DNA of 64,000 nucleotides from Iphione sp. A-MEVVRFRX5 (GCA_976226885.1 OZ320315.1:115940001-116004000); one strand, 5' to 3'; positions 1 to 47,337 are shown, numbered from the stretch's first letter. Program-made: numbers and translations. The notes: generated by a model from the letters alone, not told the origin.

Positions 1-657
1 TCCCAAATGTGTTCATCCCGTTTGAGGAGCTTCTCTGGGGTAGAGATTTTATGAAGGTATTTTATGAGGGAGATGCGTGTTTTCTTGGCAGTGGGGGCGT
101 GGGCTATATTAAACATGATGGACTTTTGAACATTAGGTAACTTATTGATTAGAGAATCTGAGAGAAGATAGTAGCGAGTGGTCTAGCACTCCAGGGCCAC
201 CCGGGCGTGGGCTATATTAAACATGATGGACTTTTGAACATTAGGTAACTTATTGATTTCAGAATCTGAGAGAAGATAGTAGCGAGTGGTCCAGTGCTCC
301 AGGGCCACCCGCCGCAGTTTTGCTGACTCCAGGAGGTGTGCCTGTTCCCACTGCACACGGGGCTGTGAGGTAGCACCGCCACACTTGTGATCTGCTTTGC
401 ATGGACAGTAACACACATCACAAAGTTTCCGGCAGGATAGCTCTTTTGCAAGGTGCAGGTTGTACACCTGCTGGGCTTGAGGAAGGTCAAAGTCCCAGCC
501 AGGGAACTACACACGGGCCACCCGCGCTACCTCCAGCTCATTGTAGAAGGGAGGGTGATTGTGCAGAGAATCATCAATACGTTGACCTGGTTCATAGGTC
601 AGCACAATTGGATGATCTGCTGGCAAGAGGTCAGGGGAAGTGGTGCGAGGACGTGAG
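1..657 (-). pseudogene. Accessory gene family 'Y' (CxxC-x6-H-x-C plus helical C-terminal domain), disrupted, runs off the window edge
   Basis: ORF 183..467 HLAKELSCRKLCDVCYCPCKADHKC; near-identical to 40749..41392; internal 108 bp tandem duplication. Confidence 0.6.
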
Positions 658-1830
658 TTGCCCTTCTTGCAGGCACGCTTTGGTGTGGCAGGGGTGGGGT
701 CCTGGAGAGGTGGAGGAGTGACAGATGCAGGAGGAGAAGGAAATCTGCAGCAGGAAGAGGGGATTGATGGCTAGTAGGTGAGGGGTGTGCAGAGGTGCAC
801 AGAGTGGGTGATGGGGAATCCCGAACTGAGGGATCAGGCGAGGGTTCGCAATAGGGTGGGCATGGGGGAGGAGTGGCAGACTGGAAAATGTTTACGTCCA
901 AGAGGGGGGTTCGTATAGGAGTATCCCACACCCAAAGGGCCTGGGGTGGGTGAAGGCGTGCGGTCAGCCCCAGACGAGGTAGTCGCCGTCCAGGCTAGCT
1001 CCTCCCCAGAGAGCCCATCCAAGGCCCACAGGAAAAGGTTCCTGGACCCTGCAGAAGGTTGGGCAGGTGCCTGCTGGGCTGAGGCTGAAGTAGAGGGATG
1101 GTTAGTAGAGGTGGGAGAAGGAGGATGGGAACTTCCTCCATGATTGGATGCAGGCAGAGACAACTGACCAGAGGCAATGTCCTGGTCCATGAGCGACAGC
1201 ATCAGTAGGTCTGCCATAGAGGCGATGGGCCCTGAGATCCAGGCAGCTGCGGCATTGTCTCATCCGTCACTGTTCTTCCCTGAGGATGCTGCCTCCACTG
1301 CCCGATCCAGTGTAGTCACTGCCTCGTGGCCGGAAAGTGGTGTGTTTGCCTCAGAAATGATGAAGTCAGCCCACGCGAAGGGAGACATGCACACTGACAG
1401 AGCATCGGAGCTAAGGAGGAAAAGTGAAATAGTGTGGGTAAGGTGAAATGTGTTGTAATATACCTGAATTTGCTGTTAATGTAAGATGAATCTTTGTGAC
1501 TATGGGTTGGGCTGTCTGAAGTGGGATAAAGTGGGCCAGGATTGAAAATATATTGGTTGAATTCAGGGTGTTGGTCTAGGGATGACGAAGAGTAGGTCAA
1601 TGCTTCTTGCATTGGCAAGAAGCGGGGTGGGAAGTTTCTCGTATATAACTCCGAGGTTTTGTCGAAGGACATAAGTAGGGTGTGTACCTGGGATGACGAG
1701 TATGAGGAGCAGCAGGACGAGCGTTTCCATGCCGACCTGAAATGATATGGGTTAGTTTCTCGATAATGTTAGCGTAAAAAGGACTTGTCATTTTTGTATG
1801 TGTATTTTCATCCTGAAATACTGAAGAAAA
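599..1830 (-). pseudogene. Accessory gene family 'V' (Pro/Ser-rich, probably spliced)
   Basis: DLLMLSLMDQDIASGQLSLPA and GYSYTNPPLGRKH motifs shared with 30756..31400; related motifs at 24427..24765 and 43130..44046; candidate GT/AG sites near 1686 and 1412 join in frame. Confidence 0.5.
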
Positions 1831-1952
1831 AAAAGGGGGGGGCCTGTCAGGTCTCATTTCCAAAGAGTTCACTTCCACATGCTAAAAGGAATTATTCTTC
1901 CACTGAATAACAAGAAGACAATGGCACAGCTTGTTTCAAATTTTTTTTTTTA

Positions 1953-2645
1953 TTAATAGATATCCTTTTCCAAATTAAATAAAACACCTGCCAGGGCCTC
2001 CTCCATCGCCTGCTGCACCGCCCTGAGGGTGCACAGGTGTCCATCATGGTGCCGCAGGGCACGGAGCACCAGTGTGCACAAAAAGTTCCACATCCGGTGG
2101 TCCCCCCGGTGGCGTCCATCCTGCACGAATGCCACCAGCCAGCCCCTCGCGCGGCGGGCAATGTGCGGGTACTGCAATTGGAACGCAGTTGAGTCCGCCA
2201 GCTGAGGTGTAAGGCCCAGTATACTGTCTATTAGGAGGGCCGGCGACCTCGACCTCTGTTCAAGTAGGTGTGGCTGGTGGGCTCCACCGGGAGTGTGTCC
2301 CGCACCCAATTGGATGTAGGGCTGGGTTCGGGGGGGGGGGCGGCAGGGTTCCCCGGGGTGGCGGCGGACAGCGCAGTTTACACAGAACTCCCGGCGCTCC
2401 ACCTCCGTGTTGATGTGGCGGAGGAAGATTGCTTCTGCCTCCTCCTCTGTGAAGGGCCGGCCCGGGTGGCAGAGGTGGAGTACCCTGGCATGCTCCCGAC
2501 CCCTCAAGGCAAATCCATCATGGGGCAAAAAGTTAGTGATGTCATGGCCCGGTTGCCATGAGGGGATGATCACAGTGCCGGGTGAGGGCTCGTTGGCTGG
2601 GGCTGCGTTAGTCCCATGGTCAGGCCCCGCATGGTTCCCAGGCAC
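1953..2645 (-). CDS. Accessory protein family 'Y', open 230 aa copy
   Basis: FCVNCAVRRHPGEPC and WNFLCTLVL...QQAMEEALAGVLFNLEKD, matching 40604..40972 (WDFLCALAL...QQAMEEALSGCLFNLEKD). Confidence 0.65.
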   Translation of the reverse strand: MPGNHAGPDHGTNAAPANEPSPGTVIIPSWQPGHDITNFLPHDGFALRGREHARVLHLCHPGRPFTEEEAEAIFLRHINTEVERREFCVNCAVRRHPGEPCRPPPRTQPYIQLGAGHTPGGAHQPHLLEQRSRSPALLIDSILGLTPQLADSTAFQLQYPHIARRARGWLVAFVQDGRHRGDHRMWNFLCTLVLRALRHHDGHLCTLRAVQQAMEEALAGVLFNLEKDIY

Positions 2646-3303
2646 AGGGGCCTGCTGGTTCTGAGGTTGTTGTTCATCTTGGGGATCTCCGTCCTCGACG
2701 TCAGCCGGAGAGTGGGGGTGGAGGAGAGGGGCGGCGACGTCTTCATCCTCTGCACCGGTGGGAGAGGGGGGGAGATGTCCCCATCCTCTACGTCGGCGGG
2801 GGAGTGGGGGGGAGGGGAGGGAGGGGAACGTCTTCCTCCGTGTCGGAGGGGGGAGGGGGGAGGGAGGGGAATGTCCTCCTCCGTATCGGAGGGGGAATGG
2901 TGGGGGAGGGGAGGGAGGGGAACGTCCTCATCCTCTGTATCTGACAGTATGATTATTCGCATGTCCTCCTCCGTATCGGAATCCGATATGATCATAGGTA
3001 GTTGGGGGTGGTTCTCCACGGTGGGTTGTGGGGCTGTTTGGTTTGGTGGGGCAACCACTGGTAAAACATAGCGGTGGTCGTCCGGGGGGGTCTGCCGGTG
3101 GGCCGGGGGTGGTGGCGCGGGGGTCTGTGCTGGGGGGTGGTTGGCCGGGTTGGCCTCGGGTAGGGCTGGGGGCGAGGCTGGGGGCGGGGTTGGGGTTGAA
3201 CCCAAGCTACCGGAATGTTTTTGCTTGACCTCCGACGAAGGTCTACGGTGGGTTGTTCTGCGAAGGGTGGACGCGCCACCCTTGGTTGTCGATTCTTGGG
3301 CAT
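2570..3303 (-). pseudogene. Pro-rich/acidic accessory ORF with SIM-like motifs, frameshifted
   Basis: Overlapping ORFs 2992..3303 and 2570..3205; MIISDSDTEED, IIILSDTEDED, repeated SDTEED units. Confidence 0.45.
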
Positions 3304-3382
3304 GGGTGGCCTGCGAGAAGATGAGGGGATTGGTGGGAAAAGGGCAGAGACATCATGGGCAGAGGTGCTGGGTTGCGGGGAA

Positions 3383-4261
3383 CTAGGTGGTAGGAAGGTG
3401 GACGGATCCTGGGTTGATGTGCTGGGTTGTGGTGTGGAGGGACGGGCTTGGGTTTGGGACGCGGGCTGCTCCGGGGGGGGGTTGCTCCGTGTCTGCTGTG
3501 GTGTTGGGCTCTAACCAGGCTAGAAGTGTCAACAAGCTGTCCTCTACCTCCGAGTCGCTCATTGCGCACATGGAGGATTCCAGTGTAATGGGAGTGAAAG
3601 GGTTATAGGTTGGGCTGGTGGGGCGGGGAGACCGTAGTTCCATTGAGGGTGCGAGGTTGAGAGTGGGTGATGGTAGGGGGTTTGGGTGGTGTGTTGTATG
3701 GTTCATCACACAATTAGGGGCCTCTGACAGTGTGATGGGAGAGGGCAGGTTATAAGTTGCGGTGTTGAGGCAGGAGGACAGTTGCCTTGTGGTGGGTGGG
3801 GTGAGTGGCAGGGGGGTTGTTGGGTGGGGGAGGTTTGTGATTGCAGGGAGCTCCAGTGGCATGGGAGAAGAGGGGTTTGACGTGGACGTGCCTAGCTGGG
3901 GAGATGATGGGCACATGGGGGGTGGAGGGGTGGGGTTGGGTGGGGGTGGGAGTGGGTGGGCGGGGGCTGGAGGGGTGGGATCATCCAGTGGGAAGAAGGT
4001 GGAGGGGTCCGCCGTGGAGGTGCTCGGTTGGGGGGAGAATGGACGAGTGGGGGATGCTGTGATGGTCGTCGCGGCTGCGTGGGAGGGGCCGGCAGCGGCA
4101 GGTGTGGGACGAGTGCATCCCATCACCCTGTCGATGAGGGAGATCATGTCCCCCATCAATCCTGAGTAACTGGCACCCCGGCGAGTCAGGGTTGTTCTTA
4201 TTGCCCTCTCAACCTCCTGTACAATGGTGTTCACCGGGGTTGTTGATTTGTTGTTGGCCAT
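3383..4261 (-). CDS. Pro/Thr-rich 292 aa ORF of unknown function inside the LTR element
   Basis: Open ORF with helical-looking N-terminus (IVQEVERAIRTTL), colinear with neighbouring accessory genes. Confidence 0.4.
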   Translation of the reverse strand: MANNKSTTPVNTIVQEVERAIRTTLTRRGASYSGLMGDMISLIDRVMGCTRPTPAAAGPSHAAATTITASPTRPFSPQPSTSTADPSTFFPLDDPTPPAPAHPLPPPPNPTPPPPMCPSSPQLGTSTSNPSSPMPLELPAITNLPHPTTPLPLTPPTTRQLSSCLNTATYNLPSPITLSEAPNCVMNHTTHHPNPLPSPTLNLAPSMELRSPRPTSPTYNPFTPITLESSMCAMSDSEVEDSLLTLLAWLEPNTTADTEQPPPGAARVPNPSPSLHTTTQHINPGSVHLPTT

Positions 4262-4299
4262 TATGTCTGAAATGTGGTATCATATGGTACCTGTGAAAG

Positions 4300-4790
4300 G
4301 GTGTGTATGTTGGTTTTATAAATAGAAAGCGTGTAAAAGTAGTGGGTTTGAGGGAAAAAGTGTCTCAAACTGAGGGTTTTATAAATAAAAGGTGTGTAAA
4401 AGTAGTGGGTTTGAGGGAAAAAGTGTCTCAAACTGAGGGTTTTATAAATAAAAGGTGTGTAAAAGTAGTGGGTTTGAGGGAAAAAGTGTCTCAAACTGAG
4501 GGTTTTTATAAATAAAAAGTGTGTAAAAGTAGTGGGTTTGAGGGAAAAAGTGTCTCAAACTGAGGGTTTTATAAATAAAAGGTGTGTAAAAGTAGTGGGT
4601 TTGAGGGAAAAAGTGTCTCAAACTGAGGGTTTTTATAAATAAAAAGTGTGTAAAAGTAGTGGGTTTGAGGGAAAACGTGTCTCAAACTGAGGGTTTTATA
4701 AATAAAAAGCGTGTAAAAGTAGTGGGTTTGAGGGAAAAAGTGTCTCAAACTGAGGGTTTTTATAAATAAAAAGTGTGTAAAAGTAGTGGA
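4300..4790. repeat. Tandem array, 63-64 bp unit, about 7.5 copies
   Basis: GTGTAAAAGTAGTGG starts at 4331, 4394, 4457, 4521, 4584, 4648, 4711, 4775. Confidence 0.95.
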
Positions 4791-5339
4791 TTCTAAAAGG
4801 TAGTAGTCTAATGTTGTGGACTTGGGTGGGGAGAGGGGAAAGAAAAGGGGGTGTGGTTGGAAATACCTGATAAAGGTTTTTGAAATATGGTTTGGCACAC
4901 AGTAAATTAGATATTCCTTCATTTTTGATGTACAAGTAAAAGGTTTATATATGTAAAAGGCACTTACCAGTTTTTAGGTGTTGTTTTTGTGGAGAAAGGG
5001 TGCTGGCACTCTGTGTGTAGAGGTGTAGTCAGTTGTTATGTTTTCCTTTTTGGTTAAATATCCCTTTTGTTCTTTGAGAGATTTTTTGTATTTTCCTTTC
5101 CTGATATATGTAGGTATAGGAGAGATGTGGTCAGTTCTGTGACTTGGACAGAAGTGGGGTTGAGGGTTATGTGTAGGGTTAGTTTAAAAATTTCGTTTGA
5201 AGGGAAAGAAGTAATTAAGGGGGGTATGGTCATAAAGTTGGATGAAGTTTATTGTACTCCCATTGTGGGCCCACCCTGGATGCTCTCTTAGGTGAGTCTA
5301 TCTCACACCTCCCCATGAGCGCCACCCCCCAACCACCTG

Positions 5340-5645
5340 CTTTGCGTCGCGTTTCAACCGCTTCCCCCAGCACGCATGCACAAACACACACACATACTTT
5401 CCCACGACTATGACAATGCCCTGCGTCGAGCCTCGACTGCCTCCCCCAGCACGCACGCACAAACACACACACACTCCATCCGGTTTTTCGGTTTTATGCC
5501 TGAATATGACCTCGCAGAATGCGAAATTTCCATCATTTCAGGCAGTTATGCCCTAATATCATCCAATTTTATCATTTTTCAGGCATATATTCCCAAATTT
5601 TGATCTTTGACAACGCTCTGCGTCGAGTTTCGACCGCCTCTCCTG
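5340..5645. repeat. Short imperfect repeat (GCGTCG...CCCCCAGCACGCA-(CA)n), 2 full copies and 1 partial
   Basis: Copies near 5343, 5421 and 5619. Confidence 0.6.
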
Positions 5646-6029
5646 GTACCCCTACCCCAATTTCGTGCGAACTTAAGGGATGGGTGCCAGGACGATTGTT
5701 ATTTCCGGTTGGTGGCGAATCGTGATGCTATGAGGAATATAATCGGATTTTAGCAAAAACCCTGGCAATTTTCAACGAAATAACAACAAAACTCAGGTGA
5801 ATTCGTCAAAAAGACATCAAAACTAAGGCATTGTCGTCCGAAAATCCGGGAAACTCAGGTGAATTCGTCCGAAAAGTCGTCAAAACCCAGGCATAATCGT
5901 CCGAAAAGCACCATAACTGAGGTAAGTTTCCCCGAAAATCCGGGGAAACTGAGGTATTTCGTTTGAATACTTGCGAAACTGAGGAAATTTTGATTGAGTT
6001 TTGGCTAAACTGAGACATTTTTGCATTGA

Positions 6030-6480
6030 ATTTGGTCAAATCCAGGGGTTTTTGTGTGAGTTTTGACAAAACTGGTGTGGATTTGTGTAGAAAATTGGCA
6101 AAATTCAGGGGTTTCTGTGTGAGTTTTGGCAAAACTGGGGTGGATTTGTATAGAAAATTGGCAAAATTTGGGGGTTTTTGTGTGAGTTTTAACAAAACTG
6201 GGGTGGATTTGTGTAGAAAATTGGCAAAATTTGGGGGTTTTTGTGTGAGTTTTAACAAAACTGGAGTGGATTTGTATAGAAAATTGTCAAAATTCAGGAG
6301 TTTTTGTGTGAGTTTTGGCAAAACTGGGGTGGATTTGTATAGAAAATTGGCAAAATTTGGGGGTTTTTGTGTGAGTTTTAACAAAACTGGGGTGGATTTG
6401 TATAGAAAATTGGCAGAATTTTGGGGGGTTTTTGTGTGAGTTTTAGCAAAGCTGGGGTGGATTTGTATAGAAAATTTGGG
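6030..6480. repeat. Tandem array, 63 bp unit, about 7 copies
   Basis: Unit GGGGTTTTTGTGTGAGTTTTAACAAAACTGGGGTGGATTTGTATAGAAAATTGGCAAAATT; appears as a 21 aa period in the ORF track. Confidence 0.95.
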
Positions 6481-6705
6481 AAAGTTCTGTCCCTTAATTA
6501 CCCGAAACTGAGGTGTAGCCATATACCTGTCATAACTGTTAAGCCAATTTGGCTTTTTGATTCATATCCTTTTTTGTGGCCGATACATGTATACTGGGTT
6601 GAATAAAGACATCATTTGCTAATTACGAATACTTTAATAAACCTGAGTTTCGACATACAATCAAGAAAAAGAATTCTTCAAAAGTGTGCTATTAAAACTG
6701 TCATT

Positions 6706-7250
6706 CTACAGTTGAATATGGAATATGGAATATGGACATGGAATACCTGCCATGATGATATTTGTTTGCGGGACAGTGGAGGAGTAGCAGGATGTGTAGG
6801 TGAGTACCGCCTTTACCGCTGCCTGCCTATGGATGTCAGCAGGAGGGGATGGGACTGCCTGACGTTGGTAGTTGTTCAGTGTCACCAAAATGAGAGCGTC
6901 CCATGCAGGCAGGAAGTGTGTTGGGAGGTCCGGCTCCTTGCGGGTGCGAAAATAGTTAGTAATCAATTGTATCACCCCCAGTTGTACAAGGGGGCAGTCC
7001 AGGTTAAAGAACTGCCCCTCCTGCCAGGTGGGCAGGATGACTCCCATGTACGTATCAGTTGTCAATGCCAATCAGTTCAACATCAGGAGTCGCTCTTGGG
7101 GGTTTATGTCAGGGTGCCAGATCCCCGTTCTTTGGCCAAACAGTACCCCGATGAGGACAGGGTCACAGTCCACAAGGGTTGGCTTCTCCCCCTGCAAAAT
7201 GGACTGGGCCCTCATCATGGCTCTGGTATAACGTCCCATCATGATCTGAA
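6706..7250 (-). pseudogene. Accessory family 'X' copy (X3)
   Basis: GIWHPDI...GVILPTWQEGQFFNLDCPLVQL...EPDLPTHFLPAWDAL...RQAAVKAV, one internal stop. Confidence 0.65.
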
Positions 7251-7331: not shown

Positions 7332-7986
7332 CTACCGTGGTCGTGGGTTGCGTGTGTCATGAACTAAAACAATATAGGGCAGGGGCGTGCATGAACTTAG
7401 GTGGAGGGGTCCGGGGGAGGGGTGAGACATTCCGGGGATGTTAATGGTTCTGTTCCACTCATCATCATCATAGGTGGGGAGTGGGGGGTACAGTCCTCCG
7501 TTTAGAAGGTGTAGGGTGACCAGGTGGCCTGACCCTGTTTTCCGCATATACGCATGCAGGCCTTGTACTGCCACCTCACACACATAGTCACTGGCTGCAG
7601 ACAAGCGGGCTGTCCTCCTCATGGCTGCGAGGGCCTCCGTGGCCAGCTGGTCCCATACGGGGTAAAACCGTGCTGGGAGCAGTGGTTCTTGGGCGGTCCT
7701 TATGTAGCGGGCAAGGATCCGCACCACGGAGAGCTGCACCAAGGGGTGAGCTCAGATTGATGAACGCCCTCCTCCAGGGGAGAATGACTGCCCCGAGGGA
7801 TGCCGTGTGGTACGACATATGCTGGAGTAGTTGGTATCGGCCGAGGGGCATCACCGAGGGATGTCTCAGTCCTTTGTCGGGCTGGTAGAGGGCGAGGCTC
7901 ACCCGAGGCATACAGTCCTCCAGTTCAGGCGCCCCTCCCTCCTGGAGGCGCCCAATCCTTGCAGACACCTCTGCATATGTGGTCAT
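7332..7986 (-). pseudogene. Accessory family 'X' copy (X2), frameshifted
   Basis: DKGLRHPSV...GAVILPWRRAFINLSSP (7588..7986) continues as VQLSVVRILARY...EPLLPARFYPVWDQL (7332..7742). Confidence 0.65.
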
Positions 7987-9626: not shown

Positions 9627-10415
9627 TCAGGGGGATCCACTTTGCATTGATTCATACTCCCAGTCCTCCTCAGCATGGAGGGGTATGGCATGCAGGGTAT
9701 GGGTGCACCTGTGGGGCTCGGATGACAAGGGGCCGGCGGCTGGAGTACCTTGCCCCTGCCTGTCTGGGTTGCAGCCCGAGGTTTCCGTGCGATGGGATTG
9801 TTTGCCCTTCCTGTGCCATTTGGGGGTACGGGGCTGATGGCGGCGGGTGTGGTGACGTCCATCTCTTGCGGGGGCCATGGTCCGGCGCCCGGGTGATGGT
9901 GATCTGTCCGAGCGGGAGGTGGACCTTTCCCTGGAGCGAGGCGCCGGGGTTGTATGCTGTTGGGATGTCCCGTCCTGGCGGGGTGAAGTGGGTTCGGCGA
10001 AGTGTCGGAACAAACCCGCCACCAGGATATCCATACGGGGAATTACATCGGCGGTTCGCTTTATATACTTCCCGAGAGCTTTGACCGCCGCCTCCCTGTA
10101 CACGCCCGTGGATAGACAGCAGCCCTTGGCAGACCGGTACTCGCACAGGGCCATAGTGACAAGGCTGTCCCAGGCTGGGAAAAATCTGGGTGGCATGCGA
10201 GGATGGTGGCGCTCCCTGAGGTAGTCTATCAGCATTTGGACCACTCTGGACTGGGCAACCGGGTAATGCAGATCGTAGAAGTGGCCATCCCAGGGGTAGA
10301 GTACCATGCCCAGGGCATCCACAGTAAAGGAGAGGTGCCACATGAGTTGGTGTCGGTACCTGTCCGAGACGTCGGGGTGACGGAGCCCCCTGTCGGCCTT
10401 GAAGAGGAAGGGCAT
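9627..10415 (-). CDS. Accessory family 'X' copy (X1) with Arg/Ser/Pro-rich tail
   Basis: DRGLRHPDV...GMVLYPWDGHFYDLHYPVAQ...FFPAWDSLVTMAL...REAAVKAL. Confidence 0.7.
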   Translation of the reverse strand: MPFLFKADRGLRHPDVSDRYRHQLMWHLSFTVDALGMVLYPWDGHFYDLHYPVAQSRVVQMLIDYLRERHHPRMPPRFFPAWDSLVTMALCEYRSAKGCCLSTGVYREAAVKALGKYIKRTADVIPRMDILVAGLFRHFAEPTSPRQDGTSQQHTTPAPRSRERSTSRSDRSPSPGRRTMAPARDGRHHTRRHQPRTPKWHRKGKQSHRTETSGCNPDRQGQGTPAAGPLSSEPHRCTHTLHAIPLHAEEDWEYESMQSGSP

Positions 10416-11229
10416 AAGGACCGGAATGCAGTCCGCTGGGGTTGGTAGGTCCCCTTACAGAAGAAGGCTTTCCCGGTCCCGGATCCGCATATGGCGGTCG
10501 GCCATGACCTGTGAATATTTGAAGTAGAGAGATGTGAGAGATCTCCCTAGAAATTTATACAATTTTGAAGGGGGTTTTAATGGGAGTCATGGTGGGGGGT
10601 GGGGGTGGGGGTCCCTGATTCGGAGTGAGGCTCTTATGGGTGGGGTGGAGGGGGGGGCGGGTAGGGGAAAGTCCCATTCGTGGTGCTGGGTACTGATGTG
10701 TCCTTTTCCTTGTATAGGTTAATTGAAACCAATGATTTTGGATGGAAAGTTCCCATGTGTGGTGCATAAAGGAGGAACCCTTCTCAGAGGAATGAGAAAC
10801 ATTGATTGTTAGCTAGCCAGTGGCAGATTGTGTCTTGGCTCTGTAGGGGAAGTTAGAATCTGGATGGCGTACCCTCATTTGGAAATTTTGATGTTCAAGT
10901 GCTTGTGTGAATTGTTTTGTTGCCTACTTGACAGAGCGGAGGTAGCTAGTCTCCGGTACTGTTTTCCAGGTCATTCCAAGGGTTAGTTGTTTTATTCTCA
11001 TTACCTTTTTATTCACAGGTGAAAGGTAGGACCCAAAGGTGAGAGGAAGCCAGTTATTTGTTATCTTATACTCAGTTTCTGTTCCAATTGGTACTGTTTT
11101 CATTTTCCCTTTTTCTGTAAGAGATTTATTATTGACGTACTGCTTTCTTCGATGCCTTTTTGTTTTCTCATTCCCTTGAATCACATGTACTTCTTGTGGA
11201 GGTCCTTCTTAGTGTTCTTATCATAATTG

Positions 11230-11520
11230 CTTTTTGTTCCATGCTTCAGGTCTCTCACCCATGTTACTGTGTTATAATGAAGGGGGAGGGTTGATGCTGG
11301 TTTGATTATGAACATTTCCTCCCTACAGGGTTCTACCTTCATTTATTGATTTTATAAGTTGTGGCTTTTTCTATTCTGGCTACTCTCATCCTAGTCCCTT
11401 ACTTCCTTGAACAAGCTTTATCTCAGAAAAACAAGAGGGTATAAATAGAGATGATTGACTGTATTTGCCATCTTAGGATGCCTCCCCTTTACATTGAGTA
11501 CAATCAAAACGTATACCTCT
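11230..11520 (-). pseudogene. Degenerate retropepsin-like aspartic protease
   Basis: Across frameshifts reads VLIVLNVKGRHPKMA-NT-SQSSLFIP...IKLVQGS, resembling V.G....lvDTGS..S.I; catalytic D not intact; follows gag. Confidence 0.35.
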
Positions 11521-11804
11521 ATGACCACCTTGGGCCATTACAGTGCTGTTCCCTGCCTTAGCCTTAGTCTTTCTCTGGGAGGGCTTCCCTGGGCAGAGAG
11601 GGTGTGATTTCAGCGTTCTATATACAAGGTTCTTAACCCAACCCAAGTTTTCTTCGGGTAGACGAGGGTAAAGTTTTGATAAGATTATACTCAGAAATTT
11701 CTTTCCTGGTTCAGGTAACCCAGGGTCCTTTAGATTTTTATCGGTCACTTCGTCTGTCCGGGATGTTGGTGACTCCCAATACTTGGGAAATTTGGAAGTC
11801 TGGT

Positions 11805-13412: not shown

Positions 13413-13430
13413 TACCCGGGTTCTCCACCA
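13413..13430 (-). other. Primer-binding site, tRNA-Ala-like
   Basis: TGGTGGAGAACCCGGGTA, complementary to a tRNA-Ala-type 3' end (...TTCTCCACCA), between LTR and gag. Confidence 0.75.
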
Positions 13431-22633: not shown

Positions 22634-22644
22634 GTTCTCCACCA
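22634..22644 (-). other. Truncated PBS (11 nt), tRNA-Ala-like
   Basis: TGGTGGAGAAC directly after LTR end CTTAAAAC. Confidence 0.6.
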
Positions 22645-32583: not shown

Positions 32584-32597
32584 CCTCCCAAGCACTG
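32584..32597 (-). other. Plus-strand primer (PPT-position) motif CAGTGCTTGGGAGG
   Basis: 1 nt from the LTR start; identical 14-mers at 15168..15181 and 40512..40525. Confidence 0.5.
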
Positions 32598-35706: not shown

Positions 35707-36151
35707 GTTGATCTGACATTACTCATAGTGGTCGCTATCTATTTACATACAAGGAGTAACTTCGTGCTTGGGGTAATCAATTTTATTAAATACAAAATGT
35801 AAAAGCTAATAATAGGTAAAATTGAATAAATTGATAAAATACACACCATAATTGGAAAATAATTTACAGTAATCACAGGAGTGGGTGGGTGGGCTTTTCA
35901 ACTGCGCTTGGTCGAGAGAGGCCGACTGACGTGTGTAGCCACTATTTATATCACAGGTTTGTGGCGCCCCCTCTCGCAATGCTTAGTCATGCGATGCCGA
36001 CATCATTACTCATAGTGGTCGCTATCTATTTACATACAAGGAGTAACTTCGTGCTTGGGGTAATCAATTTTATTAAATACAAAATGTAAAAGCTAATAAT
36101 AGGTAAAATTGAATAAATTGATAAAATACACGCCAAGCCCCAAGCACGAGT

Positions 36152-37435
36152 TTAAGTATAAGGAAGTGACTTGACTAGGGTATCAGCGACATGCCTGCTA
36201 TTTGCAGACACTATATATTGCTGGTACGCATGCGATGACCACCCACCATAGTCCTGGACCTGGGTATGTGAGCACCCTTGAAGAACAGCATTAGTCGCTG
36301 CGGAGCGACGCAGGCTATGCAATGTGAATTTACAAGGATCAAGTCCAGCAACAGCAAGAGCAGCCCGGAACTGATGGGTCAGCCACTGAGTGGTGACTAT
36401 CTGACGTGACCTAGGCATTGTAAGGAGGGGTTGAGAGGCAGAAGTAGTAGGGACAGCTAAACACATATCATTAAATGCCTGCACAGGACACAATAGAGGG
36501 TCTAGACCCGATGGTAACATAATCACACGACTATGGTTATAACCTTGCATATTTTTAGACCATTTTTGCAAAATTTTCAGCTGGCCATTAACCACAGACA
36601 CATCACCCCTAGTCGGATGCCTTGTCGGATCGAAGGCTCGAACTACATTTGGTGCCACCTCCGATTGGCGGAGGGCAGCATAGTACATAATGAGAAAAGC
36701 AAATCGTAACACTGCACTACTTTGCATAGACTGCGTTATCTTAATAACATTCCTAAAATCATGCTGTGTTATTGGTGGACGTTGGACGGGCTGATGCGGC
36801 TTGGTCCGTCGAATGGCATCTCACATCAATGTAGTGGTCCTGGCCTCAAACGCTGAGACGTCTGCTCCTGCGTCAAGCAGAAACTGCTTGACTCCACCTA
36901 AGATGTTGAAGATGGTACCAGGAGAGGGGATGTAGTGATGGAGGTATGCAATGAAGGCTGCAGCATCCGTCAGAGATGGAGTCAACGGATTCAAGGTGAA
37001 GTGGTGGCAGAATGCGAGAAACAACCCTGCCGAGCTCCTTTTGTTGGACGTCGTCCCTGGCGCCCTCGCCTCAGCCAGCAAACGGTTGGCCCCTTGGATG
37101 AGCGCGCCCATCTGCGGATCTAAAACAGAGGAGGCAAAGAAACACACATAATCATGCACCAGACCACGGACGAGCCTCACACAGGCCAAGTCTCTTAACA
37201 TGATAAGATGTGACGGCAGCATGAGCGGGACTACTCGTGGCCCTTGACATCGCATCAGGCACCACCATATAGATGCCGGGAACATGACCGAAGCGGATGT
37301 TGACATGGCACGTTGCTTGGTGAAACCAAATGTCCCTCGCGGCAGCCAACAGCTCTGGGTCACGACCGCGGCCTGTCCTGAAGACAGCCACTGCTGCCTC
37401 ATTGTCACAACACAGTTCCACTGTCGACCCTGCAT
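36152..37435 (-). pseudogene. Ngaro tyrosine recombinase with one in-frame TGA
   Basis: LRQSEV, HSLRRSAAT, GGWSSHAYQQY; ORFs 36821..37435 and 36152..36727 share a frame; overlaps the RT ORF. Confidence 0.9.
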
Positions 37436-38852
37436 CTGCCGTAGTCACAAAAGTTTTGATGGCGAGAGCGGCGTTGTGTGCCTCTATCTGTGAAATATGC
37501 ATGGAGCTGAATTCATCAGGAATTTCACACGCATAATACGCACGGCCATCCGTTGCCCCGATGCCCTGGGGGCAAGCGTCAACCTTGACACATCTGTCCA
37601 CCACATCACTAGAGATGAGAGCCACCCCATTCCATGCCACCAGGTACTTGCGGAACCAGTCAAGATCTTGTTTCATACTCACATTGACCCGTAGGAACTG
37701 CCCTTTCATCTGACGTAACGCAGTCAAAATACGGCCCACAAACAGCCTCGCAGGTCGAACACATTTGGCCACATAGAGGAGCCGGCCAAGTAGGCTCTGG
37801 ATCATCTTCTTGGTAACGGCCTTCCTCTCGTACACCTTGTTGACCTCAGCCAATGCTTCATTCACCTTGGATTCTGGAATAGAGAGAGTCATGGCATGAA
37901 CATCAATCTCGACCCCAAGCCACGTGATGCGGGCAGCTGGTGGTTGAGTCTTCTCCAATGCCTCGGGGAGGCCAAGGTTTTTAAACAGATTCCTGGTTAT
38001 CCGAAAGGCCCGCCATGCTTCTTTAGCATTCGGAGCCACCACCACCAAATCATCCAAGTACGTTATTGCTGTGATATTATGTTGGGCCAGGATGTGGACT
38101 ATGGCCTCCGCTACCTTCTGCATATGGCAGGACGACACCCGGGCACCAAATGGCATTGATGTATCCAGGTAGATGCCGTCCTGCCAGCCAAACAGCAGCA
38201 GAGGCCAATCGAGAGGGCAGGACCTGAAGTTCTTATATGCCCTCTCGATGTCGATGGTAAACATACGAGTTTGTGGTCCCATGGCCTTAATGTGATCAGT
38301 AAGGGTGGTAATGGTGGGAAGGGTATGGTGCTGTGTCTCCCCAAGAATGGCATTTTTGCCTATATAGGCGTTGATAGAGAGGTCATGTGGGTAGGATAGG
38401 TCAGTGATGATTCTGCGGGCACTCGGGTCCTTCTTAGGCCTAGTCATTAAGGGTGATACATGCGCCCACTGAACAAACGGTGATGAGGTAAAGGGGCCAT
38501 ACACTGCGCTATGTGTGAGCTCTGCCTGGATGAATGACTCCACATGGGCTGGAAAGGATTGTGCAGATGGATGGTTGGCAATCCCCCTGGTGTCAGACAC
38601 AGGGCCCATGTACCCCATAGGGAAGCCAAACTCCAAAAAGTCGAGTAACCTGGCATATTTAGGGTCATATTGTAACCATCGTTTCCATTCAGGGATGTTA
38701 ATTGCAGATTTGAGTGGAATGCGGGCGCCTTGAGCATTAGGGCACCCAGTCTCTTTAACTCGGTTATAAATGTACGCAATGTCTGACTGCAGTTGGTAAT
38801 TATCAGGTTCAGGCCAGTTTTGCTTCCTATAGTTCACCAATACCTCATTCAA
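37152..38852 (-). CDS. Ngaro reverse transcriptase / RNase H
   Basis: RIITDLS, DIERAY, MPFGA, YLDD, WLG; RNase H VDAC, EAH, CDN, DAMSR. Confidence 0.93.
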   Translation of the reverse strand: MNEVLVNYRKQNWPEPDNYQLQSDIAYIYNRVKETGCPNAQGARIPLKSAINIPEWKRWLQYDPKYARLLDFLEFGFPMGYMGPVSDTRGIANHPSAQSFPAHVESFIQAELTHSAVYGPFTSSPFVQWAHVSPLMTRPKKDPSARRIITDLSYPHDLSINAYIGKNAILGETQHHTLPTITTLTDHIKAMGPQTRMFTIDIERAYKNFRSCPLDWPLLLFGWQDGIYLDTSMPFGARVSSCHMQKVAEAIVHILAQHNITAITYLDDLVVVAPNAKEAWRAFRITRNLFKNLGLPEALEKTQPPAARITWLGVEIDVHAMTLSIPESKVNEALAEVNKVYERKAVTKKMIQSLLGRLLYVAKCVRPARLFVGRILTALRQMKGQFLRVNVSMKQDLDWFRKYLVAWNGVALISSDVVDRCVKVDACPQGIGATDGRAYYACEIPDEFSSMHISQIEAHNAALAIKTFVTTADAGSTVELCCDNEAAVAVFRTGRGRDPELLAAARDIWFHQATCHVNIRFGHVPGIYMVVPDAMSRATSSPAHAAVTSYHVKRLGLCEARPWSGA

Positions 38853-38939
38853 AGAATCGTCAATATATGACTGCCTACCTTGGTCACACTTATGACGAAT
38901 TTCATCAAAGTCAAGGTCAAACTGACATACCTGTGGGGT

Positions 38940-40406
38940 CTACTGATGGTCCTCGACCCCAGCTACTCGTTTTTTGTGGCGTAGGATGGTGGCGTTGGAC
39001 CCCGCTGGTGCTGGTGGTAGTGATTTTGCTGCTGCCATTGAGGGGGCTGCTGCCTGCCTGCCAACCTGTTGTCCGAGATGGCTACCATGCGACTGCATCC
39101 TTGGTGGAGCCAACACCTTAGCCCTCTTGCCACATACACTAAGAGGATGAGAGTTCTTGGAAGCAGTCAATGCAAAGCAATAAGCACAAACATGAATAAA
39201 ACGAACACTGTCACCCATCATGTGGTCTGCCTTGAATTCACATGCTCCTGCACCATATGCCGGGCAGGGAACTTCGGTGATAGCTTGAGGGGCTCCAGGG
39301 GCCATGCTGAGACGCATCCGCTCATATTGTATTGTCTGTTGGTCATGCCATGACATCTCTCCCCGCTCAATGCCATCAAAGATGTAATTTGACCAATGCC
39401 TAACGGACTCCCACGTTCTATGTTGTGCATCCCGTGCAACCTCCTTAACATGTTGTAGGATATAGGGAAATTCATGCTGAGAGGTGGAATTAGCATCAGT
39501 AAGAAGGGCCAAAATTGCGGGCATGAACTCATAGTAGGACATGGTTTCCCTCGCCTGGTTTTTGTCCCTCATAGTTGAACAGCCTTTTCTATCAAGATAC
39601 ATGTGTGGCTTGGCAATAAGCTGGCGTATTCTAATGTCATGATTACCTTTTGCTTGACTTGAGGCGACCCACGGAGCAGCAGAGTCAAGGTAGCTATCAA
39701 TGTACGACTGGACTGCCGGCGTACGTCGCAGTTGGGCTGGTGGTGGGGGCACCGTCTGGGGCAAACCATAGGAGCTTGTAGGCTGAGAAACGTGGTGGTG
39801 GACTGTGGAGGCTTGTTGGTCAACAGAATGTGGTTGGACAGGAACTTGTGGTGTTGGTGATGGAATTGCTGGCGTCTGAATGCTTTGGGTTGCTGTGTGC
39901 ACCTGCTGTGGAGTATTGTGTGTCTGCTGAATAGCCGAAGACAAAGAAAGCACATGCTGTTTAAGTTCAGTGAGCTCACCCAAGACACCCTCAATGCGGT
40001 CCAGCCTTACTTGCACAGAGCCTGCTGAATTTCTACGGCGTCGTGGTTGCTGTTGTGAGTCTTGGTTGACGGAGTTCCCAGGTGCCGGGTCAGTAGGCTG
40101 TGACTGCTCGTTGTCGGCTGCCACGTGTTGCGACGGGACCGGTTCTCCCTGTTGCTGTAGGCCTGCATTGCTACTCTCTACGTCCCCGCTGTCATTGGTG
40201 GTTAACTCAGGGTTGGTATTCCTTGTAGAGCGCATGTTGGCGTTCTGGAAGAATAAATAAAATATAAATGAACGAATAAAAGATAGCCAGCAGTGTCGAC
40301 GTCTGGCTATGAGGTCCACCCTTTTCAACTGCGCTTGGTCAAGAGAGGCCGACTGACGTGTGTAGCCACTATTTATATCACAGGTTTGTGGCGCCCCCTC
40401 TCGCAA
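38940..40406 (-). CDS. Ngaro gag-like ORF1
   Basis: 488 aa ORF inside the repeats; C-terminal Cys/His cluster CPAYGAGAC...HVCAYC...HPLSVC. Confidence 0.8.
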   Translation of the reverse strand: MREGAPQTCDINSGYTRQSASLDQAQLKRVDLIARRRHCWLSFIRSFIFYLFFQNANMRSTRNTNPELTTNDSGDVESSNAGLQQQGEPVPSQHVAADNEQSQPTDPAPGNSVNQDSQQQPRRRRNSAGSVQVRLDRIEGVLGELTELKQHVLSLSSAIQQTHNTPQQVHTATQSIQTPAIPSPTPQVPVQPHSVDQQASTVHHHVSQPTSSYGLPQTVPPPPAQLRRTPAVQSYIDSYLDSAAPWVASSQAKGNHDIRIRQLIAKPHMYLDRKGCSTMRDKNQARETMSYYEFMPAILALLTDANSTSQHEFPYILQHVKEVARDAQHRTWESVRHWSNYIFDGIERGEMSWHDQQTIQYERMRLSMAPGAPQAITEVPCPAYGAGACEFKADHMMGDSVRFIHVCAYCFALTASKNSHPLSVCGKRAKVLAPPRMQSHGSHLGQQVGRQAAAPSMAAAKSLPPAPAGSNATILRHKKRVAGVEDHQ

Positions 40407-40430
40407 TGCTTAGTCATGCGATGCCGACAT

Positions 40431-41466
40431 AATGATATGTAGGTGAGCAATATTTTAGTTTAAATATCATATTATCTGCTAATACATATGTTACAGGGAA
40501 AGTTTATACACCCTCCCAAGCACTGAAAAAGAAGTTCTAACACTGAACTGAAAAAGTGGTGGAAAGTATGATAAACACAGTAGTTTGGAGGATAGAATCT
40601 TTATTATGATGATTGTCTGATATGATCTTTCTCTAGATTGAACAAGCATCCTGAAAGGGCCTCCTCCATGGCCTGTTGTGCAGCATAGTGGTGTTGGAGG
40701 GGCCCTGTGTGGTGATGCTCTGCCGACAGAGCCAATGCACATAGGAAGTCCCAAATGTGTTCATCCCGTTTGAGGAGCTTCTCTGGGATAGAGATTTTAT
40801 GAAGGTATTTTATGAGGAAGATGCGTGTTTTCTTGGCAGTGGGGGCGTGGGCTATATTAAACATGATGGACTTTTGAACATTAGGTAAATTATTGATTAG
40901 AGAATCTGAGAGAAGATAGTAGCGAGTGGTCCAGCACTCCAGGGCCACCCGGGCGTGGGCTATATTAAACATGATGGACTTTTGAACATTAGGTTAGAGA
41001 ATCTGAGAGAAGATAGTAGCGAGTGGTCCAGTGCTCCAGGGCCACCCGCCGCAGTTTTGCTGACTCCAGGACGTGTGCCTGTTCCCACTGCACACGGGGC
41101 TGTGAGGTAGCACCGCCACACTTGTGATCTGCTTTGCGTGGATGGTAACACACATCACAAAGTTTCCGGCAGGATAGCTCTTTTGCAAGGTGTAGGTTGT
41201 ACACCTGCTGGGCTTGAGGAAGGTCGAAGTCCCAGCCAGGGAACTACACATGGGCCACCTGTGCTACCTCCAGCTCATTGTAGAAGGGAGGGTGATTGCG
41301 CAGAGAATCATCAATATGTTGACCTGGTTCATAGGTCGGCACGATTGGATGATCTGCTGGCAAGAGGTCAGGGGAAGTGGTGCGAGGACGTGTTGTGACT
41401 ATGGGTTGGGCTGTCTGAAGTGGGATAAAGTGGGCCAGGATTGAAAATATATTGGTTGAATTCAGG
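40431..41466 (-). pseudogene. Y gene plus env upstream region (continuation of the element split by Ngaro)
   Basis: 40431..40530 aligns with 15085..15185; 40749..41466 aligns with 1..655 and 1494..1567. Confidence 0.75.
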
Positions 41467-41760
41467 AGGACTCCAAAGGCAAAATTCATCAGAAAATAAT
41501 GGAATTTGTAATAGTCATTGAGAAAGTGATATTGCTGCCTTCCCTGACGTCAGATATATAGATTAACGTGATATATAGATTAACTGTTTTAGCAAGCAGA
41601 TGGAGATGGAGTTTTATTTTAACATTCAATTGTGTGGAAAAAGGGGGTAACTTGAACTGGTGGATACAATGAACATGCTGTTACTACTGCTAATGATCCA
41701 TTATAGGAAAAATAACTATTTTATACAAAAAGAAGTGTAGAAAAAAAAATTTCAACTTAC

Positions 41761-41834
41761 CTTGAGTCCATAATGGTGTAGGGGTTGCTGTCTTCTGTGT
41801 TGGTGATCTGTGAGGAGTCTTGGAAAGTGAAAAT
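41761..41834 (-). other. Putative leader micro-exon with start codon
   Basis: CACAG|ATTTTCACTTTCCAAGACTCC...ATGGACTCAAG|GTAAG; paralog at 44354..44415. Confidence 0.45.
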
Positions 41835-42065
41835 CTGTGGTTTTGTTGAGATCCCTGGGATCAATTCTTCTGATTATATGGGGCAGTATATTATTTTGTT
41901 TTTGATTTTTCTCAGTTTCTAGAATCCAGGCAGGTTCTGGAGAGACCTCCTTAGGTGAATGAATCCAAGGGGAATGGACACATTACCTGGTGTGGCGTCA
42001 TATGAGGTACAAATAACAATGCCTTCATGAGGTGACTGTCAGAAATAAAATTTCATTCAATTCAA

Positions 42066-43030
42066 TGTCTGTCATAGAAGATTTCTGTGGAGAATGCTTC
42101 AAGTGGTTTTGTGTTGAGCGGCAGTAGCTCCTGGCAATCAATAATGTCATGGCCCTGGCAGAGAGTCATGTCATGGTGGCTAAGTTCTATAAAAGATGAT
42201 ACATAAATTGGGCAAAGGCATGTTCATAGTAAAATGCTGGGTCTGTGATCATTACTTGCTCCCGTCCTGTAAGCAACTGGCTGACCTTATGAAGGCCTCT
42301 GGCTATTTAGTCTGGGCTAACTAATGATCCATGGAAGAAATGGAAGAATTGTTCCTTTAGTTTGTGCAGTGCTCCAAGCTTAGGATTAGAGAAGAGAGAT
42401 AAGTCTGTTTCCAGACTAATATCAATAACATGGGATTGGTTCCTCATTATGTTATCAACTTGTCTGGAGAGATGCTCTACACATTGGATGATTCCTAGTA
42501 TTGCCTTGTCATGGCGGCTGACCTATCGGGTAATTGTTTGTATCGCTATGGAGGTAGTATTTGCCAAGGTTGAAACCTGTGTCTGCAAAGTTAAGATGGG
42601 TCTATTTTGTCTGCTAACATATCTATGCACAGTACAGAGCTTTTGAGGCTGAACCCACAAATCCAAACCAGGACCGTGGTTGTCTACCTGCTGCCTCAGA
42701 GGTTGGATGTGCTAAAATTTTATTGAGGTGGAGGTTCTTCTCCGACTTCATGGAAGAGTCCCTCATAAAGGTGTTGCATTTTTCAATGTACTGAGGGTTG
42801 GGACTATACCTATTAGGGCATCGATCAGAAGGAAGTGCTTCACGAGCCAGTGCATAAGGGTCTCTGATTCATTTTGTTGTGCCTGTTGCCATTGCACCCG
42901 GGGCTGTTACAGGAGCACCACATCACTCATGTTTGTTGAGGGGGCGGTAGCATACATCGCAGAGGCCATGCCACGACAGCTGATCAGAGAGGTGCTGGTC
43001 ATATTCCTGCTCAGCTTCATCCTCCTTTAA
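42066..43030 (-). pseudogene. env: Internally deleted env copy plus Y fragment
   Basis: 42066..42760 aligns piecewise to 34478..35420 and to 14534..14790; 42850..43020 aligns to 15590..15760. Confidence 0.7.
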
Positions 43031-44415: not shown

Positions 44416-45365
44416 CTGTGGTTCTATTGAGATCCCTCGATGCATTCTCGTATTTATGTAGTTTGTTTAAAAATGATTTTATCCCAGATTTAGGAGTCTC
44501 AAGTATTGGGGTGACCTCCTGGGGTGAATGGATTTAATTAGAGTGGATGCATTTGTGAGTTTTCTCATCCAGGTGTGGGCCAACAGAAGAAGTAATTCCC
44601 AACACCAATAATCCGAGATCTTTAAATTCTCACATATATGCAATTCAATGACTGTTTAAGGTTTAAAGTCAGACTGTGGAACTATAAAACTTGCTTGGCA
44701 GTGAGATCAAATAATTTATATTTTCAGTGTTAGATATGTTTCAGATATGTTTCTATGGATGAAGTACAGGGAAGGCCAAAATATAGTTAAGACCTTTTAT
44801 TTGGAGTAAACACATCTGTAGGTACATGTGAATATCTCCTCCCTGGCAGCAGTACTTTTCACAAATACACAGTTCACAATTCTATAGTATGAATTACACT
44901 TGTTTTCAGTATTGCGGTATACAGTTATCATAGTATACAGTTCACAGTTTTGAAGTATACAGATCACAATATAGTGTATATATGAAAAACAGTCATACCT
45001 CTACCTTATATATGTCCTCATTGAAACCTCAGAGAATGTCCTTATGTGAGGAAGAGTCCTTATGTGAGTTCCAATGGTCCATATAGGATCCTGTGTAGTG
45101 TGGTGGCAGAGCTCTGTACTGCATGGGTCCCAGGTCCTGACTGACTGCCTAAGGGGAACCCTGCTCCTTATATAGCCAGAGGCCCTGTGGCCTACCACCT
45201 GTTGGGTGGTCCCTAGTACAACCTATACTGTATGTAATCTCGGAAAACTTTTTATAGAAAGTTATGTCTAAAATAGGGTTTTGTAAGATTATGTAATTGG
45301 ATTTTGGGCCAAAGTTTGCAAATTTTGCATTATTTGGCGAATTAAAATTACACTACTTAAATGGG

Positions 45366-46423: not shown

Positions 46424-46496
46424 TTCCCCATGTGGGGTTTAAACCTCTGACCTTTGGCTTGGGAAGCCAGCACCTAACCCATTGGGCCATTGAGGC
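46424..46496 (-). pseudogene. Decayed tRNA-Arg(CCT)-like gene, anticodon now CCC
   Basis: GCCTCAATGGCCCAATGGGTTAGGTGCTGGCTTCCCAAGCCA...GGTTTAAACCCCACATGGGG matches the animal tRNA-Arg(CCT) pattern; T7 run follows. Confidence 0.6.
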
Positions 46497-46669
46497 CACC
46501 TGTCAGACTGAGAGTTAGAGGTTGGCCTTGTCCCTACATAAGGTTAGTAGAAGTATTCCTTAAATTGAAATAATATATAAGATCATTTCAAAACTTTGAA
46601 TTTTGATGTTAAATTAGTGTTATTTAACAAAATAAGATATGAAAACTCTGTTTCGAAGTGCAAATGAAA

Positions 46670-47297
46670 AAACCTTAACCTCTCACTGATCTCAGTATAA
46701 GAGGACCCCTTTCTCTTTAGAAGGTATTTCTTTAGAGCACCCCAATTTTTATGATGAGCAATGTGTACATGCATAATTCTTGGGAGGAAAGCCTGGGCCT
46801 TTTCAAAACACCTATTCTTCCAAATATGGCACCTGTCATCCCCTCACCCTCTGCTTCTTCTGTCCTATGAATTCCTTCATGTACTCTTCATACTGATGTA
46901 TCCATTCAGCCACTGCATAAGGGTCTGTAGGAAACATACTAGGCCTTTTTGGCATAATAGTCAACCTCTTAGCTAGAGCCTCAACTACATCACCCTCTGC
47001 CATTCTGAACTGTCTCTGTCTTTCTCCCACAAATTCAGCAAAGTTTGGACTTACTGGTGAAATATGTTGTCTGGCAGCAGATGATCTTGATGAGACAGGT
47101 CTGGCAGGGGCTGGAAGAGGGACTGGTCGTTGCGGGAAGCCATCGGAAACCAGCAGCTGGCTTGGGGTGGTCCACCTCACGGGATCAGTTGCTCTCTTGG
47201 AAGGTTTGGTGTCCTTGGGTTGGGAGCTGCAGGTGCTGGTTTGCTCCTGGTCCTCTGTGTGGCTGCTCTGTGTGATCCGCCAGCACTTGTTAGCCAT
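46670..47297 (-). pseudogene. gag: Second, divergent gag copy, truncated
   Basis: MAEGDVVEALAKRLTIMPKRPSMFPTDPYAVAEWIHQYEEY versus E1 MAEEGMIEAFAKRLTIIPKRPGMFPSDPYQVVDWVHQYEDY. Confidence 0.8.
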
Positions 47298-47319
47298 GTA
47301 CAACTGCTGTCAGGTGAAA

Positions 47320-47337
47320 TACCTGGGTTCTCCACCA
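47320..47337 (-). other. PBS, tRNA-Ala-like, with LTR remnant upstream (47338..about 47610)
   Basis: TGGTGGAGAACCCAGGTA preceded by CTTAAAC; AATAAA near 47545. Confidence 0.7.

Follow-up and report, generated by a model that had tools for sequence, protein, structure and literature searches.

A probable env-bearing long terminal repeat retroelement lineage with a paralog-expanded accessory block before an F-type env in Iphione sp.

A stretch of 64,000 nucleotides from Iphione sp. A-MEVVRFRX5 (GCA_976226885.1 OZ320315.1:115940001-116004000), referred to here as the window, was analysed. Positions 1-47337 were found to contain dead, nested, internally deleted copies of one long terminal repeat (LTR) lineage, all on the minus strand, and every family copy in the window lies dead inside a one-strand transposon graveyard. 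Large deletions were present in almost every copy, including within env and within the open reading frame (ORF) families termed here X and Y (the latter including V). The lineage is probably an env-bearing LTR retroelement with a paralog-expanded accessory block between pol and an F-type env. Two copies, E1 and E2, are led by a 5' LTR and carry the following features.

13431-14533, minus strand: 5' LTR of E1, approximately 1.1 kb, with U3 tandem repeats, inserted in the env of another copy (exact 14-nt start; env homology stops at 14534)
13413-13430, minus strand: primer-binding site (PBS) of E1
11805-13388, minus strand: gag of E1, with an in-frame TGA (12204-12206) separating the capsid-position region from the zinc knuckle (zf-CCHC, E 1.9e-6)
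11750-11814, minus strand: slippery site G GGA AAC where gag stops, followed by a downstream hairpin (z -1.9; 6 of 200 shuffles fold equally well)
10700-11826, minus strand: decayed 5' pol-position sequence, approximately 1.1 kb
9627-10505, minus strand: X1, with an Arg/Ser/Pro-rich tail; an early stop breaks the gene
7332-7986, minus strand: X2, a paralog, frameshifted
6706-7242, minus strand: X3, a paralog with one internal stop
4312-6486, minus strand: two 63-bp tandem arrays and spacer, in E1 and not in E2
3383-4261, minus strand: W, a proline-rich ORF (20% Pro) whose N-terminus is conserved (W against W' of E2, score 63; shuffle maximum 34)
2570-3352, minus strand: V', a proline-rich acidic ORF with two motifs resembling SUMO-interacting motifs (SIM-like)
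1949-2927, minus strand: V, of the Y family, with a CX2CX4HX4C knuckle and an X-related helical domain; AATAAA lies on the stop
1572-1745, minus strand: env acceptor and env N-terminus (signal peptide) of E1, which breaks here
22634-23950, minus strand: 5' LTR (approximately 1.3 kb) and PBS of E2, joined straight to the X1 ortholog and inserted in a Y gene
19845-22633, minus strand: interior of E2, with X1 ortholog, X3-like ORF, W' and V N-terminus, ordered as in E1

The order in E1 was LTR, PBS, gag, slippery site, decayed pol position, X1, X2, X3, the two 63-bp arrays, W, V', V, AATAAA, acceptor and env start. The first-pass annotation had described E1 as running at least 14.5 kb without reaching env; this was wrong, as the env ATG of E1 lies at 1730, 12.8 kb from the LTR start, and opens a signal-peptide ORF that is 59% identical to the env at 35.7 kb over 51 codons before breaking off at approximately 1570. 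The accessory block of E1 spans 10505-1953 (8.5 kb), of which the array region, approximately 2.2 kb and without counterpart in E2, is possibly a later insertion. Two different 63-bp arrays were seen at 4312-6561, one of them forming an open ORF of 21-amino-acid repeats; a short ORF at approximately 8925 has the same start context as this ORF. E1 and E2 were collinear, with LTR, X1, X3-like ORF, W and V in matching order (LTR-PBS-X-X-W-V), and their X1 proteins were 54% identical.

The 3' part of the lineage was recovered from other copies, one of which is interrupted by a foreign element of the DIRS type.

14534-16563, minus strand: copy E0, with upstream region, X4, deletion junction, Y, AATAAA, 14-mer (15168-15181), acceptor and 5' part of env
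31850-32582, minus strand: truncated 3' LTR downstream of env (exact start; R-region score 144 against E1, shuffle maximum 118)
32584-32597, minus strand: 14-mer at the polypurine-tract (PPT) position, 1 nt before the 3' LTR
33002-35706, minus strand: full-span F-type env, approximately 900 codons, with frameshifts in the 5' half, internal stops, signal and fusion peptides, two hydrophobic segments and a long tail
35716-40430, minus strand: DIRS element in the env splice acceptor (RVT_1 and Phage_integrase; junctions)
40512-41982, minus strand: upstream exon with GTAAG donor, Y gene, AATAAA and internal 14-mer copy (40512-40525)

On one side of the DIRS element lie Y, AATAAA, 14-mer and acceptor, and on the other env, 14-mer and LTR; these flanks match the uninterrupted Y-14-mer-env junction at 15.1 kb. 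Therefore Y, env, the second 14-mer (420 nt beyond the env stop) and the LTR starting at 32582 form one unit. By its position in these copies, the accessory block has its place after the LTR/gag end and before env, and several accessory ORFs under selection were found within an LTR unit, as in complex retroviruses. A second subfamily showed the order X, Z, Y, AATAAA, 14-mer, acceptor, env (15-16, 24-25, 30-31 and 40-44 kb).

Many elements of the first-pass annotation were recovered. The three PBSs it had proposed gave motif matches at 13420-34, 22634-48 and 47327-41 (chance mean 0.19), and its three LTR starts matched the 14-nt start with 0 mismatches at 14533, 23950 and 32582. Its two gag genes were 51% identical over 110 codons, with a Pfam zf-CCHC match in one (E 1.9e-6), and its recurring ORF families in a repeated order were real. 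Its four env loci lie at 1572-1730, 14534-15076, 33002-35706 and 42065-42780, and a fifth was found at 58.3-60.3 kb. The PBSs led to gag in two of three cases only, since the PBS of E2 is fused directly into an X gene.

LTR followed by tRNA PBS and gag, the arrangement of an LTR retroelement, was present. The LTR starts at 14533 and 23950 break into the coding regions of an env and a Y gene, respectively, that belong to other copies, and the PBS follows 1.1 and 1.3 kb on. R-U5 identity between the E1 and E2 LTRs was 73%, and the LTR starts are TG. When two mismatches were allowed, the 14-nt start had a chance mean of 0.88 and 5 of 100 shuffles reached three matches; support for the LTR starts therefore comes from their exact identity and junction context. 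The 5' LTR ends before the PBS were seen to close with an imperfect inverted copy of the LTR start, and the U3 of both 5' LTRs (13905-14458 and 23161-23886) holds related tandem repeats of 16-128 bp rich in short palindromes, which are probably enhancers. At 44700-45260, TATA-like and polyadenylation-like signals suggest another LTR, with similarity to the family LTRs barely above shuffles. The window comparisons established neither a second LTR family nor an LTR of the copy at 58-63 kb. The complement of the E1 PBS fits what we take to be the 3' end of tRNA-Ala (G3:U70 and A73). Rfam and ARAGORN scans gave no matches. The PBS string had 0 matches in seven supplementary files of an errantivirus survey (PMC13524379), where its complement occurred once, in a water-flea element.

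The conserved 14-mer of the first-pass annotation occurred three times exactly, with a fourth, two-mismatch match on the other strand; none of 100 shuffles reached four. A motif at the PPT position before the 3' LTR is typical of LTR retroelements, although this one is only partly purine. The 14-mer followed by one base and TG was found before the 3' LTR and again before env, and the 14-mer is probably both the 3' PPT and an internal PPT copy; the copy before env could instead be a splice signal only. Internal PPT copies are known in Ty1, EVADE and HIV (PMC7197481).

Window profile searches recovered eight X loci and eight Y/V loci. The X profile matched the eight X loci and then Y pieces, and the Y profile gave X pieces as its next matches. 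Alignment of X against Y with hhalign gave a probability of 88.7 and a score of 42.8, compared to a maximum of 18.7 in 200 column shuffles. On these profile comparisons, X and Y/V are distant paralogs of one helical family. In a tree of 11 core pieces, X was split from Y with 100/100 support and X4 grouped with X5 (98/96), other groupings being weaker. The ratio of non-synonymous to synonymous substitution (dN/dS) was 0.19, 0.41 and 0.32 for X pairs and 0.20 and 0.19 for Y pairs, values that, like the 0.12 of env, come from local alignments and are biased somewhat downward. The other six of the 12 pairs tested were synonymously saturated (non-synonymous difference, pN, 0.26-0.42; synonymous difference, pS, 0.75-0.91), and synonymous change exceeded non-synonymous change in all 12. 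The substitution pattern indicates that the X and Y/V genes were kept under purifying selection. That host genes make up the X/Y family, or that the array arose as an artefact of assembly, is barely credible: the family lacks known relatives and one segment is duplicated near-identically (95%), but at the protein level the copies have diverged from 74% down to 37%, with a bias by codon position, and X/Y is joined to a PBS and has env and LTR as its boundaries.

The X profile gave 0 matches at E <=0.001 among 1.84 billion proteins, the best Atlas score for X1 was 0.76, which is not a lead, and a PDB sequence search with X was blank. Y, W and Z had no Pfam match except a weak Ski2_N (E 0.037), and PHROGs returned one weak match for Z (E 0.0073). 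A structure model of X with six helices (predicted confidence, pLDDT, 74) had no Foldseek match at E <=0.001, the best VIA match reaching Z 5.1 (root-mean-square deviation 3.6, 87 aligned); a model of Y (pLDDT 54, too poor) also reached Z 5.1 at best. A Bcl-2-like fold for X appeared in several rows, all with E >1, and was not trusted. Neither X nor Y has a transmembrane segment (maximum hydropathy <=1.26). The CX2CX4HX4C knuckle of V has variant spacing in other Y copies, and four SIM-like acidic motifs in the window, found with a pattern written after the motifs had been seen, all fall within accessory ORFs.

A pyrimidine-rich acceptor was found 2-6 nt before the ATG in eight of 12 genes (background 0.149, p 7e-5), the misses being X5, the env whose acceptor is disrupted by DIRS, and two Z starts. 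AATAAA was found at the end of all four Y/V genes (background 5%). Two copies share a conserved coding exon that closes on an in-frame GTAAG donor. The accessory ORFs may have been expressed from spliced subgenomic RNAs. The spliced accessory repertoire of the first-pass annotation was upheld as a multi-gene, acceptor-fed block upstream of env, while its diversity was reduced, the block being largely one tandem-expanded paralog family plus proline-rich ORFs.

Per-gene polyadenylation signals and the conserved GTAAG donor would also suit an origin of X, Z, Y and env in a DNA element, either a Polinton/Maverick or a large DNA virus that had integrated, with the LTRs and gags as unrelated nested insertions, and Polinton-polB-like fragments (26.3-28.5 kb; identified by motifs, with only a weak PHROG endonuclease match, E 0.0099) do lie between the Y at 30 kb and X5 on the same strand. 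That strand is no link, however, because nearly all transposon remnants in the window share it; two LTR-led copies, 46% divergent in X1 protein, share their gene order, and the same 14-mer stands before env and before the 3' LTR. No convincing Polinton terminal inverted repeats were found in the three regions scanned. We regard this origin as very improbable. The fragments themselves (26116-28541) are decayed, resemble a Polinton-type DNA polymerase B in their motifs, lack confirmation by Pfam, and have a LINE-like (long interspersed nuclear element) tail at their low end.

The env was identified as F-type from its sequence features. In the Atlas, 21 of 30 matches were Baculo_F clusters (score 0.90-0.92), the family being present on 28-44% of cluster members, and the copy at 58283-63365 matched Pfam Baculo_F with E 6.6e-4, below the curated cut-off. 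An RxPR furin-type site was found in all three env copies checked, and a signal peptide and a transmembrane segment are present; together with the fusion peptide, these are the parts of an errantivirus-type (F- or gB-type) env. The dN/dS of env was 0.12. PDB sequence searches with gag and env were blank, and env and gag searched against longer proteins likewise gave no match, a result that counts as weak evidence. At 33002-33973, a second hydrophobic segment and a tail of approximately 250 codons extend beyond the transmembrane anchor, a length that seems unusual.

A different classification of the same architecture, as a relative of vertebrate retroviruses (lokiretrovirus- or foamy-like) rather than an errantivirus of invertebrates, is quite unlikely. 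F-type env occurs in lokiretroviruses (PMC7947760), and the foamy-like endogenous retroviruses (ERVs) of fish carry accessory ORFs in the pol-env interval, along with paralogous accessory genes (PMC5512871); foamy viruses, however, prime on tRNA-Lys (PMC5512871). The env Atlas neighbours were mostly arthropod Baculo_F clusters, a lead only, as the taxa rest on few members. CpG depletion (observed/expected 0.39 overall, 0.16-0.33 in older elements) would fit a methylating host. Some invertebrates, however, also methylate transposons. The lineage is probably of Ty3/gypsy type, a candidate member of Metaviridae with a putative invertebrate host.

The gags of E1 and E3 (below) differed with pN 0.29 and pS 0.77. 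Only the zinc knuckle was recognised, by Pfam; sequence searches, including PDB, gave no match to a capsid fold. One CCHC knuckle was found in E1 gag, and BEL/Pao Gag has three. The in-frame TGA of E1 gag is either a mutation or a read-through site. A third gag, proposed by eye at 31.55-31.74 kb right after the truncated 3' LTR (31400-31760), was not significant (23 of 500 shuffles). The slippery site with its modest hairpin makes a -1 frameshift into pol probable. The pol-position sequence of E1 (10700-11826) yielded no protease, reverse transcriptase (RT), RNase H or integrase in Pfam and other searches. The integrase of the first-pass annotation did not hold up: it consists of only approximately 160 codons of C-terminal GPY/F-like sequence, the motif being recognised by eye, with no Pfam or PDB match.

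19340-19830, minus strand: integrase-C-terminus-like scrap, GPY/F-like by eye, with adjacency as its sole link to the family

Neither LTR-led copy has pol enzymes: E1 retains approximately 1.1 kb of decayed pol position, and E2 has its PBS fused to X1. This would be expected if the block occurred only in non-autonomous, pol-less derivatives (satellites resembling LARDs, large retrotransposon derivatives) mobilised in trans by a gag-pol-env helper, and non-autonomous LTR derivatives are known (PMC6431247). With deletions in almost every copy, however, loss of pol is expected as decay; E1 has kept the frameshift signal and the start of a pol-frame ORF, and the integrase-like scrap lies upstream of X4 once a LINE is set aside. 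Such satellites are unlikely, and an autonomous gag-pol-accessory-env form of the lineage is the one we infer.

The core of that reading, an LTR retroelement with its own accessory block before env, is supported by the collinear divergent copies, the DIRS-split Y-env-LTR unit, purifying selection and acceptor enrichment. Several observations weigh against it. The window LTRs are unpaired, comprising two 5' LTRs and one truncated 3' LTR from another copy, and neither an LTR pair nor a target-site duplication of the family was found in the window. The three LTR ends before the PBSs (13431, 22645 and 47338) lack a canonical CA, and the only partly purine 14-mer includes an acceptor-like AG. The acceptor test is partly circular, because starts were chosen after their contexts had been seen and orthologs are non-independent. 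AATAAA lay within -25 to +60 of only seven of 17 stops examined, and similarity between copies in the exon downstream of the GTAAG donor was not significant (121 of 500 shuffles scored as high). The RT, RNase H and integrase core of the family were absent among 136 window ORF pieces scanned; the integrase scrap is unconfirmed, and the LINE and approximately 300 unassigned bases separate it from X4. Finally, the X and Y folds gave no functional match and the SIM pattern was composed post hoc.

In the mechanism we propose, the autonomous genome would read LTR-PBS(tRNA-Ala)-gag-(-1 frameshift)pol-accessory block of 6-8.5 kb-F-type env-PPT-LTR, approximately 17-20 kb, a size estimated by combining subfamilies and assuming a length for pol. 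RNA driven by the LTR would be spliced to the acceptor just upstream of each ORF start, giving nested mRNAs. Some accessory messages would terminate early at the internal polyadenylation signal after Y/V, and env and genomic RNA would read through. The internal PPT copy before env may prime plus-strand synthesis within the long genome. A genomic RNA with introns and internal polyadenylation sites would require protection and nuclear export; for this reason X/Y could be guessed to act as soluble nuclear regulators in the upkeep and export of full-length genomic RNA (Rev- or CERV-like) and in counter-silencing, perhaps via SUMO binding, a speculative role by analogy that we would sooner doubt than rely on. 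The wider proposal, an independently evolved, complex invertebrate Ty3/gypsy genome (approximately 17-20 kb) combining an internal PPT of lentivirus style and regulated internal polyadenylation with an F-type env and a tandem-expanded novel RNA-export/anti-silencing family, is a serious possibility held tentatively, slightly more apt to fail than to hold.

The remaining copies and fragments of the lineage were as follows.

1-1567, minus strand: fragment of another copy (Z and Y), not of E1 (1-655 are 95% identical to 40749-41392)
23951-25722, minus strand: copy E4, with upstream region, X5, Z and Y N-terminus (82% DNA identity to the X4 region)
30392-31248, minus strand: Z and Y fragments with AATAAA
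42065-44533, minus strand: deleted copy with upstream exon, Z, Y and env pieces
46676-47341, minus strand: E3, with LTR end, PBS and 5' part of gag
58283-63365, minus strand: divergent third subfamily, outside 1-47337, with X, acidic ORF, acceptor and env (Baculo_F, E 6.6e-4)

Across positions 1-64000, a single LINE (16.9-19.2 kb) was counted on the plus strand; every other recognisable transposon remnant lies on the minus strand. This one-strand layout resembles a flamenco-type PIWI-interacting RNA cluster. The DIRS element is nearly intact, with gag, RT, tyrosine recombinase and split repeats, and its RT is 45-52% identical to the best database proteins. A LINE-associated 628-amino-acid ORF at 53796-55679 ends in a C-terminal NADAR domain (E 6.8e-14) and is followed by a 244-amino-acid ORF (52978-53709) with no Pfam match.

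Many spliced accessory genes are thought typical of vertebrate complex retroviruses. If the lineage is as proposed, it would represent a second origin of such a layout, in an F-env LTR lineage, and would imply that genome complexity of this kind evolves repeatedly; X/Y would add a novel family of proteins that are candidates for RNA export or counter-silencing. The sense-strand internal polyadenylation signals raise the question of how full-length genomic RNA is produced. Such elements may also be widespread and hidden from errantivirus screens by size and gap filters. The survey of 1,512 errantiviruses (PMC13524379) accepted a pol-env gap of <=1 kb and a total of <=10 kb, and because of these filters it would miss the layout found here; the word 'accessory' has 0 occurrences in its main text. 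The premise of the first-pass annotation, that errantiviruses carry gag, pol and env only, leans in part on a survey with such limits. We predict that repeating the errantivirus survey across metazoans, with the limits on gap (1 kb) and total size (10 kb) lifted, should bring up elements of this kind.

Searches of the open-access literature turned up no account of this family. Metazoan errantiviruses with F-type env (PMC13524379) likewise have LTR, tRNA PBS, gag, and an F-type env that bears a signal peptide, a furin site, a fusion peptide and a transmembrane segment. In contrast to the gag-pol-env only described in the excerpted text, the window lineage adds 6-8.5 kb of genes, internal polyadenylation signals and a duplicated PPT-position motif. 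Lokiretroviruses (PMC7947760, in excerpt) share LTR, gag, pol, F-related env and an RXKR-type site; they are found in vertebrate hosts and have at most an extra smc gene. Troyka elements have CG termini, unlike the window lineage (PMC12440569). Single extras are described in other invertebrate LTR elements: the spliced regulatory gene of Cer1/CERV in C. elegans (PMC10309623), the pol-env spacer and subgenomic env RNA of Oikopleura Tor (PMC4402516), and the one extra ORF of bdelloid ORF3s (PMC5408684). Each of these has one extra gene or promoter, whereas the window lineage has an array of at least four paralogs.

The fish foamy-like ERVs AciFLERV and AliFLERV (PMC5512871; size from PMC6431247), compared by description only, likewise have orphan ORFs between pol and env and a paralogous accessory pair, with up to eight ORFs and approximately 17 kb. 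They belong to Retroviridae, have a tRNA-Lys PBS and carry more accessory genes after env (PMC5512871), whereas the window lineage has a Baculo_F-like env, an Ala-like PBS and all its extra genes before env. Planarian Burro (PMC6431247) is likewise a very large invertebrate gypsy element with env homology and extra host-modulating cargo. Burro is larger, carries the known domains BIR, BCL2 and MATH fused into one polyprotein, and has env between gag and pol (PMC6431247); the accessory genes of the window lineage are separate, orphan and acceptor-fed. The lineage thus works like an F-type-env errantivirus and is laid out like a complex retrovirus, a layout that is new for its apparent group and has precedents in the fish foamy-like ERVs and planarian Burro.

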